Positions 21,859-27,181 are shown, numbered from the stretch's first letter. The stretch is 27,181 nt of DNA from Candidatus Pacearchaeota archaeon (GCA_018304175.1 JAGVWT010000013.1:1-27181), one strand, 5' to 3'. Numbers and translations: made by a program. Notes: generated by a model from the sequence alone, not told the origin.

Positions 21859-22707
21859 TTAATTATCTAAAGGACTTTTTATATTTATCAATTTTTCCGG
21901 GTTTGAGTGAACATAAATCATTGAAGTTTCAGGAGATTTATGTCCCAAAACAGATTGGACTTCATTAAGGCTGTTTCCTGATTCAATTAAATGAGTTGCA
22001 AAGCTATGTCTTAATGTATGCGGGTGAACTTCTTTCCATTCTTTAAGTTTTGCTTTTTTTGAGGCATTTCTAACTATTTTTTGAATACTCCTAACAGAAT
22101 ATTTTCTTTTTCTGTTACTCATAAAAATTAAATCATCTTCTTTTAAATTTCCAATTTTGATTAGATTTTTTATTTTTTCTTTAACGACAAAAGGAATTAA
22201 GATGATTCTGTCTTTTCCTCCCTTACCATTTCTTATAAATCCAAAATTTTTTTCAAGGTTTAAATCCTTAATTTTAATATTTAGTAGTTCGGAAACTCTT
22301 AAACCAGAACCATATAGGAATTCAATCATTAACCTATGTTTCCAGTTTGAAATTGCATTTAATAATTTCCTGACTTCTTCTTTTGTCAGAAACCTCTGGA
22401 TTCTCTCAGGAATTTTTGAGTATTTTATATCAATCCACATTCTCTTTTCCAAAACCTGTGTAAATAGAAATCTTAAAGCCATATGGTAAATATTAAGGGA
22501 ATTTCCAGACAGGTTTTTTTCTGATAAATAATTGAGAAACTCCCGGACATCTTTTTTGCTGATTTTTCCCAAGTCCTTTTTACTCCAGTTTAAAAATCTG
22601 TTAATACAGTAAAGATATGTCTTTACTGTTCTGTTTGATAATCTTCTCCTTTTACATTCTTTCCTCACAGCAGAATCAATACCAAGAGGAATATAAGCCA
22701 TTATCAT
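21859..22707 (-). CDS. Tyrosine recombinase, XerA/integron-integrase-like (no IntI-specific insertion)
   Basis: Complete catalytic set R (GLRVSE), K (GKGGKDR), HxxR (HTLRH), H (LGH), Y (SMIY); IntI-like N-terminal SAM domain (SNRTVKTYLYCINRF); C-terminal KSPLD. Confidence 0.93.
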   Translation of the reverse strand: MIMAYIPLGIDSAVRKECKRRRLSNRTVKTYLYCINRFLNWSKKDLGKISKKDVREFLNYLSEKNLSGNSLNIYHMALRFLFTQVLEKRMWIDIKYSKIPERIQRFLTKEEVRKLLNAISNWKHRLMIEFLYGSGLRVSELLNIKIKDLNLEKNFGFIRNGKGGKDRIILIPFVVKEKIKNLIKIGNLKEDDLIFMSNRKRKYSVRSIQKIVRNASKKAKLKEWKEVHPHTLRHSFATHLIESGNSLNEVQSVLGHKSPETSMIYVHSNPEKLINIKSPLDN

Positions 22708-22774
22708 TAAAATAAAAACAGCATTAAAAATCTAAGTTTTAATTTCGTAATAGAAACAAAATTTTCAAAGGCAT

Positions 22775-22798
22775 TGTTAAAATTCAGGACTTTTAACA
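22775..22798. promoter_or_regulatory. Perfect inverted repeat between integrase start and proximal site (candidate accessory binding site or operator)
   Basis: TGTTAAAA-ttcaggac-TTTTAACA. CAGGACTTTTAAC (22785-22797) is also a near inverted copy of GTTAAAAGCCTG in the proximal site. Confidence 0.45.
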
Positions 22799-22821
22799 CT
22801 TAATAAATTAAAATTTAGCAA

Positions 22822-22849
22822 AGTTCGTTAAAAGCCTGTTAGTAGAAAT
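22822..22849 (+). repeat. Proximal attI-like site (site C)
   Basis: AGTTCGTTAAA-AGCCTG-TTAGTAGAAAT. It has a cassette-type right arm but lacks the TCGGR left arm and hairpin body, contains G|TT at the inferred crossover, and lies 115 bp from the integrase start. Confidence 0.7.
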
Positions 22850-22915
22850 TTTTGCTACGCAAAAACTCTTCGCTCGATTAATTTTAGTTATACCATCCCC
22901 CGCCCGAAGGCATGC

Positions 22916-23395
22916 CTACTTAGAAAGAATTAGCCCACCACAATAATTTTGTCTGAAAACTTCCTTTCCTTGATAAAGAATTTGTTCTGTTCCTTTAAAA
23001 TCTTTAATATCTCCATCGCTCGAATCTTTATATTCCCATTCTCCCTCATGGAAGTTTTCAGGACCTCTAAATGGTCTCGTTACTTCAACCAATTTTAATG
23101 CTTTTTTGAGAAATGTAAATGTCTGTTTGGCAAAATCTCTATTTCCTATATTTTCCTGCGTCATTCCGCCACTATATGCCATTGCCCAAATTGGCTGACC
23201 TTGGAATCTTACATATTCTTGTCCCGGCGCCATAAAATATCCGACATAGCTGTCCCTATATTCCCAAGGTCCTTCTATAAATTCTAATTCTTTAAAGCCC
23301 GGTCTCTGTGGCAGAATTTCTTTTCCATCTCCTGCCCACGCTTCAGATTTTGCCTTTATCAAAAATCTGGCTAATTCTTCAAGGTTAACTTCCAT
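22916..23395 (-). CDS. Cassette 0 cargo: DUF5680-like protein
   Basis: FLIKAK...YRDSYVG...GQE.V..QGQPIWAMAYSGG...RPFRGP...GEWEY pattern; own TATA 22 nt upstream. Confidence 0.8.
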   Translation of the reverse strand: MEVNLEELARFLIKAKSEAWAGDGKEILPQRPGFKELEFIEGPWEYRDSYVGYFMAPGQEYVRFQGQPIWAMAYSGGMTQENIGNRDFAKQTFTFLKKALKLVEVTRPFRGPENFHEGEWEYKDSSDGDIKDFKGTEQILYQGKEVFRQNYCGGLILSK

Positions 23396-23510
23396 AAATT
23401 TAGTATAAAGTATTAGTTTAATAAGTTATCGGCATGCCTTCCCCCACCCTTAAAAATTGCTAAAATTAATCTCGCTCGCCTCGTTGCACTCTCAAAATCC
23501 TTCGGATTTT

Positions 23511-23541
23511 TCGGGTCTACTAACAGACATTAGTTTCAATT
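23511..23541 (+). repeat. Cassette junction D
   Basis: TC-GGGTCTACTAA-CAGACA-TTAGTTTCAAT-T. Confidence 0.85.
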
Positions 23542-23696
23542 CTGGGTTTACCTTACAGGTACGCTTCGCTACCGAAAATTCTAATGTTCTTATCTTCGTT
23601 AAAATCATAAAGAAAAAACTCACAAAATTACTTCATAACTTACCTAACAAAATTTTAACGAAATTGTTGAAAAATAAAAAATATAGAACGAAAGAT

Positions 23697-23966
23697 TTAT
23701 TCTTTTAGTTTCTTTTCCAACTCTCCAGAATTGTCTTGATTTTTTAGAATGTCCAACTTTTCATTAAAATATGCTCTTGCATATCTTACTCCATCTGCTA
23801 AAACTCCTGCGGTTAGCAATGAACCTCCACCAATCGCATATGTTTCAGTGTTGTCCATTCCAAACATATTTAGCATATAAGATGCTCCAATCAATCCAAT
23901 TCCAATTCCTTTCGCTACTGATTCGAGTGGAAAACCTTTGTATTCTGGTAAATGATTTTTTGTCAT
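23697..23966 (-). CDS. Cassette 1 cargo: small two-TM hypothetical protein
   Basis: 89 aa with Gly-rich hydrophobic helices; TATA (TTTATAAA) 23 nt upstream. Confidence 0.65.
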   Translation of the reverse strand: MTKNHLPEYKGFPLESVAKGIGIGLIGASYMLNMFGMDNTETYAIGGGSLLTAGVLADGVRYARAYFNEKLDILKNQDNSGELEKKLKE

Positions 23967-24134
23967 ACAATAAAGAATAAATCAATACTTTATAAATCTT
24001 TCGTTTATTTTACCACTTGAAAGTTAATAACTTATTTTTCAACAACTACGATAACAACGAATTTTCGGCAAACCCAGAACTCGAGATTTTTCGGCTTCGC
24101 CGAATGTTGCACTAAAATCTCGTCCTCATTTCAT

Positions 24135-25632: not shown

Positions 25633-25697
25633 GTCGCCAAAAAGTGAACTTGCTCCGCTTCGCTACGCACCCCGCTGCACTCTCCTCCTTTCAGTCG

Positions 25698-25728
25698 TCG
25701 GGACAGATAACAAGGGTTATATTCAATT
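25698..25728 (+). repeat. Cassette junction G
   Basis: TC-GGGACAGATAA-CAAGGG-TTATATTCAAT-T. Confidence 0.85.
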
Positions 25729-25796
25729 TTGTATTTGAGAACAAAGAAAGAGTCCCTTTAGAAACTTTTATAATATTCTTAATTTCATCTATTTAT

Positions 25797-26237
25797 ATGA
25801 CAGAAAAATATCAAAAAATCACTGTTGGAGGATTGCTTGTAAAAAATAATAAAGTTCTTGTTGTTAGAAGATCTTCTGCTGAACCCTACTTAACAGGATA
25901 TTACGAATTACCTGGAGGAAAAGTTGACTTTGGAGATCATCCAAAAGAAAGTCTTGAAAGAGAGTTTATGGAAGAAGTAAATCTCAAAGTCATAGCGTTA
26001 CATCCATATCGAGTATTCACTTACATTTCTGATAAAGGAAATCGTCATACTGTTGAATTAGTATATTTTGTTGAATTAGATGACGATACTAAAAATATTA
26101 AATTAAGTGAAGAACATGACGATTTCAAATGGATTTCAGCAGAAGAAGTCGATGATTTACAAATTAGTGATGAAATTAAAATGAACATTAAAGTTGGTTT
26201 CAAAGAAATTGAAGACTGGGCTCTTTCTAAAAAATAG
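25797..26237 (+). CDS. Cassette 4 cargo: NUDIX hydrolase (MutT-like); true start ATG 25797, not 25644
   Basis: Nudix box GGKVDFGDHPKESLEREFMEEVNL; LSEEHDDFKW; TATA TTTTATAA 24 nt upstream of ATG 25797. Confidence 0.93.
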   Translation: MTEKYQKITVGGLLVKNNKVLVVRRSSAEPYLTGYYELPGGKVDFGDHPKESLEREFMEEVNLKVIALHPYRVFTYISDKGNRHTVELVYFVELDDDTKNIKLSEEHDDFKWISAEEVDDLQISDEIKMNIKVGFKEIEDWALSKK

Positions 26238-26322
26238 ACTCCCTTCGGTCGAGATTAATAATAGTTCTCAAATACAAAACTCTGAAATTTCCCTTCGGAA
26301 CGTTGCACTAAATTTCAGCCCT

Positions 26323-26353
26323 TCGGAGAATATAACAGGAATTATACGAAATT
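26323..26353 (+). repeat. Cassette junction H
   Basis: TC-GGAGAATATAA-CAGGAA-TTATACGAAAT-T. Confidence 0.85.
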
Positions 26354-26405
26354 GAAAGTCAGCCCTACCAAAATGTTTTTAATATCTAACTGAAATCAAA
26401 TAACT

Positions 26406-26921
26406 ATGGCACACATAAATATTGAAATCAAAGCAAAATCAAACAATCAAGATGCGATAAGAGAAATCTTAAAATCAAAGAATGCCGACTTTAAAGGTGT
26501 TGATCATCAAATTGATACATACTTTAAAGTTAATAATGGTAGACTAAAATTAAGGGAAGGAAAAATTGAAAATCACTTAATTCATTATCAAAGAGAAAAT
26601 AAAGAAGGTCCAAAACAATCAGATGTAACTTTGTTTAAATCTGACCCCAAATCTTCGTTAAAAGAAATTTTAACCAAAGCATTGGGAATTTTAGTTGTAG
26701 TTGATAAAAAGAGAGAAATTTATTTTTTTGATAATGTGAAATTCCATATTGATATCGTTGAAGATTTGGGGACATTTGTTGAGATTGAAGCCATTGATAA
26801 TGATGGCACGATTGGGAAAGATAAATTACTTGAACAATGTCAATTTTTCCTTGATTTATTTAAGATTTCTCAAGAAGATTTGATTTCAGTCTCTTATAGC
26901 GATTTATTATTGCAAAAATAA
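26406..26921 (+). CDS. Cassette 5 cargo: CYTH-domain protein (class IV adenylate cyclase-like)
   Basis: NIEIKAK (ExExK), QIDTYF, LKLR, VVVDKKREIY, KFHIDIVEDLGTFVEIE. Confidence 0.92.
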   Translation: MAHINIEIKAKSNNQDAIREILKSKNADFKGVDHQIDTYFKVNNGRLKLREGKIENHLIHYQRENKEGPKQSDVTLFKSDPKSSLKEILTKALGILVVVDKKREIYFFDNVKFHIDIVEDLGTFVEIEAIDNDGTIGKDKLLEQCQFFLDLFKISQEDLISVSYSDLLLQK

Positions 26922-26975
26922 TGGGCTGACTTTCAACTCAAGAGGACGCTGCGCTTTCGCTCCACTTCGTTACGC

Positions 26976-27006
26976 TCGGGACACATAACAAGGGTTAGTT
27001 TCAATT
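26976..27006 (+). repeat. Cassette junction I
   Basis: TC-GGGACACATAA-CAAGGG-TTAGTTTCAAT-T. Confidence 0.85.
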
Positions 27007-27058
27007 GCTCGGCGGCGGCTAAGATACTTTTATATAATTCATAATGTTCACAATAAAT

Positions 27059-27181
27059 ATGGAATTGAGTAAATTTTTTGTCAAAGCCAAAAACAACAAA
27101 CTAATCTTCTAAAAAATGAAAGACTACATAAAATATATTAGCTATTCTTTTATTATGATTATAATTGTTTTTGTGGGAGCA
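27059..27181 (+). other. Start of cassette 6 cargo (17-aa ORF, in-frame stop, then ATG 27116 with hydrophobic run; truncated)
   Basis: TATA TTTTATAT 24 nt before ATG 27059; MELSKFFVKAKNNKLIF*K-MKDYIKYISYSFIMIIIVFVGA in one frame. Confidence 0.35.

Follow-up and report, generated by a model that had tools for sequence, protein, structure and literature searches.

A recombinase gene and a one-way array of single-gene units

The DNA analysed here (27,181 bp from Candidatus Pacearchaeota, hereafter the window) is the entire contig C6 of G000, an archaeal metagenome-assembled genome (MAG) from groundwater, of 544 kb in 17 contigs, that is 87.7% complete. It carries a gene for a XerA-like tyrosine recombinase and, beyond a proximal site, a row of short gene-bearing units, here called cassettes, separated by directly repeated junctions (Table 1). 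The six junctions match a 31-nt pattern, TCGGR-N5-TAACA-N4-TTA-N5-AATT, on the + strand only, and span positions 23511 to 27006. Each unit has TTA-N5-AATT at its start (the head) and TCGGR-N5-TAA at its end, followed by a 6-nt spacer, CANNNN. Each holds one main open reading frame (ORF), the products being, in order, a DUF5680 protein, orphans of 89 and 180 aa, a class I methyltransferase, a NUDIX protein and a CYTH protein. A first-pass annotation of the window had delimited cassettes c0 to c6, described the recombinase as divergent from them and fitted all six junctions to the above pattern. All these coordinates were verified, and a pattern search of all 17 contigs of the genome gave six matches in the array and zero outside it. 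The shorter core TAACANNNNTTA is present 11 times in the window against an expectation of 2.27 ± 1.61, a count reached in none of 100 shuffles.

The proximal site, TTCGTTAAAAGCCTG followed directly by TTA (22824-22841), lies 116 bp from the recombinase start codon, on the opposite strand, and is present in single copy in the genome. An independent 28.7-kb assembly of the same population (L204) agrees with the window in left flank, recombinase and array, and its array extends further; hence the array is not an assembly artefact. A genome of the same genus (G001) is syntenic on the left flank up to a histone gene, after which it has other genes and neither recombinase nor array. Together, the agreement with L204 and this synteny place the array on a genuine archaeal chromosome. 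The array sequence was not found at the end of contig C9, which is syntenic with the region after the histone gene in G001, and Rfam and tRNA scans of the array returned nothing relevant.

The histone gene encodes a 61-aa archaeal histone-fold protein (21669-21854); it lies 4 bp downstream of the recombinase gene, on the same strand, and is kept in G001. It was considered as a conserved accessory factor and rejected, neither this gene nor others of the left flank being found next to orthologous recombinases. At the opposite end of the recombinase region, the first ~35 nt of c0 (within 22839-22880; TTAGTAGA AATT TTTGC tac GCAAA AACTC) look like a collapsed mini-cassette without ORF, fused to the DUF5680 cassette. 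Other arrays (L041, L056, L059, L064, L072) contain mini-cassettes that stand alone and measure 67-150 nt.

Table 1. Features of the recombinase-array region of the window. Every cassette is counted from the first T of its initial TTA.
Feature	Position	Strand	Remarks
XerA-like tyrosine recombinase, 282 aa	21859-22707	-	transcribed away from the array
Proximal attI-like site	22824-22850	+	TTCGTTAAAAGCCTG, then head of first cassette (TTA GTAGA AAT)
Cassette c0	22839-23529	+	DUF5680 gene 22916-23395 (-); tail element ~23431-23523; spacer CAGACA
Junction core j0	23511-23541	+	pattern match
Cassette c1	23530-24153	+	89-aa orphan 23697-23966 (-); tail element 24067-24147; spacer CAGCGA
Junction core j1	24135-24165	+	pattern match
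Cassette c2	24154-24836	+	180-aa orphan 24206-24748 (+); tail element 24748-24830; spacer CAGGGC
Junction core j2	24818-24848	+	pattern match
Cassette c3	24837-25716	+	S-adenosylmethionine (SAM) methyltransferase 24907-25632 (+); tail element 25636-25710; spacer CAAGGG
Junction core j3	25698-25728	+	pattern match
Cassette c4	25717-26341	+	NUDIX hydrolase 25797-26237 (+); tail element 26264-26335; spacer CAGGAA
Junction core j4	26323-26353	+	pattern match
Cassette c5	26342-26994	+	CYTH-domain protein 26406-26921 (+); tail element 26923-26988; spacer CAAGGG
Junction core j5	26976-27006	+	pattern match
Cassette c6, start only (contig end)	26995-27181	+	head TTAGTTTCAATT

The recombinase clade and its proximal site

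The recombinase contains the Pfam domains Phage_integrase and Phage_int_SAM_4, and its best NCBIfam model is XerA_Arch, with 217.8 bits for a cutoff of 220. Members of its own clade (see below) score 212-229 bits on this model and XerA copies outside the clade, in relatives, 237-267. The IntI models match below threshold: TIGR02249 gives 180 bits, split in two stretches, against a cutoff of 265, and PRK15417 gives 104 against 435. The best solved relatives are the XerA proteins of Pyrococcus abyssi (4a8e) and Thermoplasma acidophilum (5hxy); Vibrio IntI4 (2a3v) can be aligned only over residues 14-185 of the recombinase, the point where the IntI-specific domain would start. With 282 aa, as compared to ~320 for IntI, the protein has no additional domain, and its catalytic R-K-H-R-H-Y set is complete (R137, K162/165, H230, R233, H256, Y265). 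As judged from these alignments, the enzyme is a XerA relative without the IntI insertion, which bears out its description as a non-IntI recombinase in the first-pass annotation.

A search for the recombinase in 61 relatives, followed by construction of a maximum-likelihood tree, separated two tiers of homologues. Orthologues of 54-70% identity occur in seven genomes and form a separate clade with 100/100 support, while copies of ~40% identity occur in nearly all genomes, including five of the seven that have an orthologue. Alignment and regular-expression searches located the proximal site TTCGNNNAAAGNCTNTTA, followed by a cassette head, upstream of each of the nine clade members for which enough flanking sequence is available, and upstream of none of 12 other XerA genes with flank. 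Arrays of the same junction design follow the clade recombinases in G022, G023, G009, G339, G095 and G109. Thus, the search for arrays beside orthologous recombinases in other DPANN genomes, which the first-pass annotation had proposed, recovers the layout together with a conserved proximal site.

Four of the 12 other XerA genes, forming a sub-clade (G246:C4, G271, G007, G056), are preceded by a different proximal site and then a cassette head. Their proximal element consists of a 9-10-bp inverted repeat followed by ATG, immediately joined to TTA-N5-AAT, and by cassettes of their own (L060 6155-6200; L011, L019, L075). At least two XerA lineages therefore adjoin arrays. The remaining sub-clade, which has neither proximal element, looks like housekeeping XerA.

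Two loci depart from the common arrangement. In G246:C3 (L059 6328-6927), a proximal site of the window type and an array of at least 10 junctions come directly after a 199-aa ORF, which by eye, from sequence alone, appears NYN/LabA-like, and no recombinase gene adjoins; this reads as an array whose recombinase was lost or replaced. In G095:C1 (L066 6544-7377), the orthologous recombinase, which still adjoins the proximal site and at least two cassettes, lies in three reading-frame pieces and is thus likely a pseudogene.

Junction cores, head-tail complementarity and cassette variation

The core of the junctions has an 11-6-11 layout, with GGR-N5-TAA as the left arm, CANNNN as the spacer and TTA-N5-AAT as the right arm; the consensus derived from 294 junctions reads tcgGg..a..TAA CA..ga TTA.....AAT. 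The same layout is found in the P. abyssi dif site that was used experimentally, ATTGGATATAA TCGGCC TTATATCTAAA (PMC2958812), and the right arm present in some relatives, TTATATCCAAT, is the exact reverse complement of the left arm of that site. The left arm of the junctions is asymmetric, with GGR at the position where dif has ATT. Unlike a dif half-site, the left arm of the proximal site, TTCGTTAAA, is not the palindromic partner of the right arm. Between sites, spacers have nothing in common beyond the leading CA; that of the proximal site is AGNCTG. Spacer linkage gives no uniform picture: in nine aligned loci the spacer of the proximal site goes with the proximal arm, whereas with some heads, TTAAGAGG and TTAAACAG among them, it goes with the head. 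No palindromic 11-6-11 housekeeping dif was found in the 17 contigs of the MAG.

The first ~25 nt of each cassette pair with the last ~100 nt of the same cassette and not with those of its neighbour. Statistics were collected on 57 cassettes from 24 loci. The N5 of a head forms 3.30 of 5 possible Watson-Crick pairs with the N5 of its own tail, the match being perfect in 22 cassettes; shuffling the partners lowers the value to 1.99 ± 0.14 (maximum 2.47 in 1000), and the two arms within one junction score 1.89. The inner arms are 8 bp long. Outer stems measure 8-17 bp and, in a set of 28, comprise 365 Watson-Crick pairs and 4 mismatches. In c0, the head TTAGTAGA is complementary to the tail TCTACTAA, and in c1 the head segments TTAGTTTC and CTGGGTTT are complementary to the tail segments AAACCCAG and GAAACTAA. 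A 16-bp outer and an 8-bp inner stem form across c4; c5 has an outer stem of 14 bp and inner arms that are partly complementary.

Complementarity inside single junctions is at chance level, and no self-contained attC hairpin is present there. Nor did a crude regular expression (not IntegronFinder) detect any RYYYAAC...GTTRRRY pair 45-150 nt apart on either strand of 22701-27181. The attC fold had been called non-canonical in the first-pass annotation and, by both measures, it is.

Since the head of a cassette is complementary to its own tail, circularising the cassette would restore a long palindrome with the core at its centre. When joined, tail, spacer and own head of the window cassettes fold with predicted energies of -14 to -27 kcal/mol. 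In six cassettes out of six, the cognate circular junction is better by 6-14 kcal/mol than array or non-cognate junctions; for c2 the values are -20.7 kcal/mol for the circularised junction and -10.2 for the array junction. The left half of the palindrome is broken by a conserved GC-rich insert of ~35-55 nt, in which a small hairpin, NN-TGC-N'N', covaries (GC/GC in 14 cases, CT/AG in 11, GT/AC in 7 and AT/AT in 7). Outer stems, inner arms and TGC mini-hairpin are almost purely Watson-Crick, and wobble pairs do not indicate which strand would fold. One class of heads breaks the pairing rule. These heads (TTA-AGAGG/AACAG/AACGG/TGAGG-AAAA, together with a local hairpin whose loop is TTGCA) recur in many genomes (L047, L051, L058, L060, L069), always after a CAGCGA or CAGGGC spacer and without a complementary tail.

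The contents of arrays vary between relatives, in line with the expectation of the first-pass annotation. One array of G246 contains three copies of a 151-nt cassette without ORF, 95-99% identical to each other. Identity begins at the first T of TTA and stops at the last A of TAA, the neighbours being unrelated and the spacers different, which sets the unit boundary at the core. The non-coding shell of c1 (23530-23706 and 23963-24081) holds unrelated genes of 89, 178 and 134 aa, in both orientations, in three genomes (the relatives being G023 and G246; L022 3396-4215, L059 6935-7600). Several more replacements of the centre of this shell are seen in metagenome contigs. Cargo in other arrays includes class II aldolase, HD, rubrerythrin, SDR, alpha/beta hydrolase, pentapeptide, methyltransferase, DUF2085 and HNH proteins and many orphans. 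Homologues of the window cargo in a one-genome-per-species prokaryote set are of low identity only (41-43% for DUF5680, 31-35% for the methyltransferase). ORFs read with the array in 26 cases and against it in 19. In c0 and in c2 to c5, boxes resembling TATA elements were read from the sequence ~24-31 nt ahead of the start codon, and these cassettes would thus be self-expressed, unlike those of integrons.

Variation is also seen within the population. Assemblies split ~203 nt past the c5/c6 junction, that is, at the contig end of the window; beyond it, some assemblies have a 148-aa gene in c6, and there are two alternative tails. The N5 of the c3 head (24837-24848) is polymorphic, being either TCTGT or AGTGA (L205, L208, L209, L211), with the rest identical. 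TCTGT pairs with the tail of c3 itself; AGTGA is the N5 of the c2 head and makes j2 a perfect palindrome. On its face, this polymorphism suggests short-patch conversion of arms independently of the cassette body.

Of the 401 genomes of the order, 71 contain the strict junction pattern (53 of 153 genera), with ~105 matches as compared to 14 for a reversed control. Among the matches listed for the one-genome-per-species set, most are records labelled Pacearchaeota, Woesearchaeota or Nanoarchaeota, and single bacterial matches are as numerous as expected by chance. In contigs from groundwater and soil metagenomes, tail elements are 20-80x deeper than cassette genes, an indication that many organisms in those communities carry the family.

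Interpretation and comparison with known systems

We consider it likely that the locus is a chromosomal, integron-like platform for gene cassettes that derives from archaeal Xer/dif and is run by a dedicated XerA paralog. The comparisons show the anatomy of the locus, the link between recombinase clade and proximal site, the spread within the order, the discrete unit boundaries and the variable content. We infer catalysis by the recombinase, the exact point of crossover, a circular intermediate and a role for the palindrome. As the first-pass annotation had proposed, the site architecture is the system's own and distinct from attC; we would now describe it as a Xer/dif-type core inside a cassette-specific palindrome. 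In addition, the layout recurs in other genomes, and arrays that start from another proximal site adjoin a second, related lineage of XerA.

In the scheme that we propose, a dedicated XerA paralog is transcribed away from a fixed proximal site, TTCGTTAAAAGCCTG joined to TTA, and one-gene cassettes with their own TATA-like promoters are stacked one way, separated by dif-type cores. The recombinase would bind the two arms of the double-stranded core and exchange strands at or within the spacer; dif is cleaved at the spacer ends (reviewed in PMC8371274). Recombination between two junctions would free a circle in which tail and head of the cassette are joined. This circle would carry a palindromic dif-like site between inverted repeats, as in native archaeal dif, and would insert either into the proximal site or into another junction. 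Native archaeal dif sites have inverted repeats on both sides (PMC2958812) and P. abyssi XerA binds stem-loop DNA, which by analogy makes a folded or cruciform site on the circle plausible. A complete two-step exchange is unlikely because spacers differ beyond the leading CA. Exchange of one strand pair, resolved by replication as in integrons and for the CTX phage at dif, would be likelier.

Several observations weigh against this proposal. Non-identical spacers would block the classical two-step Xer reaction. The proposal offers no purpose for the palindrome, and there is no wobble bias for folding of either strand. Ten array-bearing genomes without a recombinase in the stretch analysed were checked for the clade gene: three have it elsewhere in the genome, and seven have only copies of 37-45% identity (assemblies 82-89% complete). 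The link between enzyme and array is therefore not exclusive. No cassette was found at high identity in arrays of different genomes, the only such case being the triplicate within one array of G246. Some strain-level breakpoints fall away from the core, within c6 and where outer stem and insert meet, so homologous recombination between repeated tails also reshapes arrays. Finally, cassette mobility itself is deduced from sequence comparison; the 14 public runs consulted provide contigs only, which are blind to rare excision or circle joints, and joints with sides of 20-45 nt at repeated tails look no different there from arrays of other organisms.

The alternative that survives best, which we hold to be improbable, is a form of hitch-hiking typical of integrative mobile elements exploiting Xer (IMEX). 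Here, the recombinase would be the housekeeping dimer resolvase, the proximal site the chromosomal dif and the cassettes serially integrated selfish elements. The dif-like core would fit, as would an enzyme that scores as XerA, just under the cutoff, in an assembly (87.7% complete) with no other XerA-like gene. Many array-bearing genomes show only ordinary-looking XerA copies, and the second XerA lineage adjoining arrays is above the XerA cutoff. However, at least seven genomes that have the clade recombinase also have a second XerA, of ~40% identity (G005, G009, G031, G032, G042, G220, G283), and the third clade, lacking a proximal site, looks like the true housekeeping XerA. In addition, the proximal left arm is not the palindromic partner of the right arm that a dif half-site would be, and G000 offers no palindromic dif candidate.

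It is very unlikely that the array consists of passive palindromic repeats, of the repetitive extragenic palindromic (REP) or miniature inverted-repeat transposable element (MITE) kind, that spread between ordinary genes near a recombinase by coincidence. Such repeats would explain the size of the family, as reflected in the depth of tail elements in metagenome contigs, and the rearrangements that run through tail-tail homology. They would not be expected at one genome locus only and in a single orientation, with halves split across each gene in a cassette-specific manner, boundaries at a Xer core and a starting point at a proximal site that follows a single recombinase clade in nine cases out of nine. 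We give equally little credit to a device that flips genes or acts at the RNA level, where the inverted repeats would invert the gene or pair the ends of its transcript and not move it. The direct orientation of the cores predicts excision rather than inversion, the stems show no G:U-type wobble following the gene strand, and the proximal site and its link to the recombinase clade are left unaccounted for, even though every gene is bracketed by near-perfect inverted repeats of 8-17 bp and ORFs are found in either orientation. A canonical archaeal integron with IntI and attC, as in Ghaly et al. 2022, is ruled out for practical purposes, since the matching layout (divergent integrase, proximal site, array of one-gene cassettes) and the partial IntI matches are outweighed by two-piece, sub-cutoff IntI scores, the structural alignment, a protein of 282 rather than ~320 aa with no additional domain, arms that complement each other at chance level within a junction and the lack of attC-type pairs on either strand (crude regular expression).

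Returning to the Xer/dif-derived cassette platform, we lean, with some reserve, toward a broader proposal: that it represents a widespread mode of gene capture in DPANN archaea (labelled Pacearchaeota and Woesearchaeota). It would not be an integron, and would have arisen from XerA/dif either independently or as a sister to IntI's own origin. Its recombination site would be a palindrome that is cut in the middle, with a half-site at either end of every cassette, and recruitment would have taken place in at least two lineages of XerA, each with a proximal site of its own. Full-text literature searches found no published description of the system. Among devices that accumulate and reshuffle accessory genes, integrons are the textbook case, and their origin from Xer-like recombinases is assumed but undocumented. 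A cassette platform with a XerA-type enzyme and dif-type cores would mean that site-specific gene capture evolved more than once, or that an intermediate stage has been preserved. If true, the proposal could account for archaeal cassette arrays without integrase and would offer a living model of the way in which Xer recombinases gave rise to integrons. It is a simple system, made up of one 282-aa enzyme and cores of 28 bp, and is common in ultra-small, host-dependent archaea with very little other known gene-exchange machinery; in DPANN genomes it would account for a major source of the variation between strains.

The archaeal integrons of Ghaly et al. 2022, who also report clusters of attC sites lacking integron-integrases (CALINs), are canonical (PMC9668308). 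As in integrons (PMC9668308), the recombinase diverges from the proximal site, the cargo is diverse, accessory, mostly single-gene and arranged one way, the opening bases of a cassette are complementary to its own far end, sites resemble each other more closely within a lineage, and arrays without a neighbouring recombinase exist. In contrast to integrons, the recombinase is XerA-like and has no IntI-specific domain, and R''-L''...L'-R' hairpins are not found. Crossover would take place in the middle of the palindrome rather than at its base, the site being split across the cassette and, in this sense, inside-out. Whereas integron cassettes are mostly promoterless, co-oriented and served by the common promoter Pc, cassettes here would have their own promoters and show no orientation bias.

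Enzyme family, catalytic residues and an 11-6-11 site with TAA-N6-TTA are shared with archaeal XerA/dif (Cortez et al. 2010, PMC2958812). That system resolves chromosome dimers at a single palindromic site in the termination region, as opposed to at least seven directly repeated, asymmetric sites at one locus here, where the left arm has GGR for ATT and the 35-55-nt insert, spacers are variable, and the recombinase comes from a distinct clade of paralogs and has a proximal site of its own beside the gene. The sites that bound pdif modules alternate in orientation. Such modules, as known from Acinetobacter, resemble the cassettes in being discrete accessory-gene modules bounded by Xer-type 11-6-11 sites (PMC6449649, PMC13141974). 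They are thought to move by Xer recombination, are mainly plasmid-borne, with chromosomal cases also reported, and use the host XerC/XerD pair without a dedicated recombinase or proximal site. The present array differs from them in its chromosomal direct repeats, with all junctions on one strand, and in its dedicated single Xer-like recombinase. Lastly, IMEX at bacterial dif (CTX and TLC phages, the gonococcal island) have in common with this system a dif-type core, tandem accumulation and the toleration of non-identical spacers, in their case through exchange of a single strand pair. Unlike those multi-gene elements, which depend on housekeeping XerCD, the system described here has one gene per unit, long arrays and an adjoining recombinase paralog.

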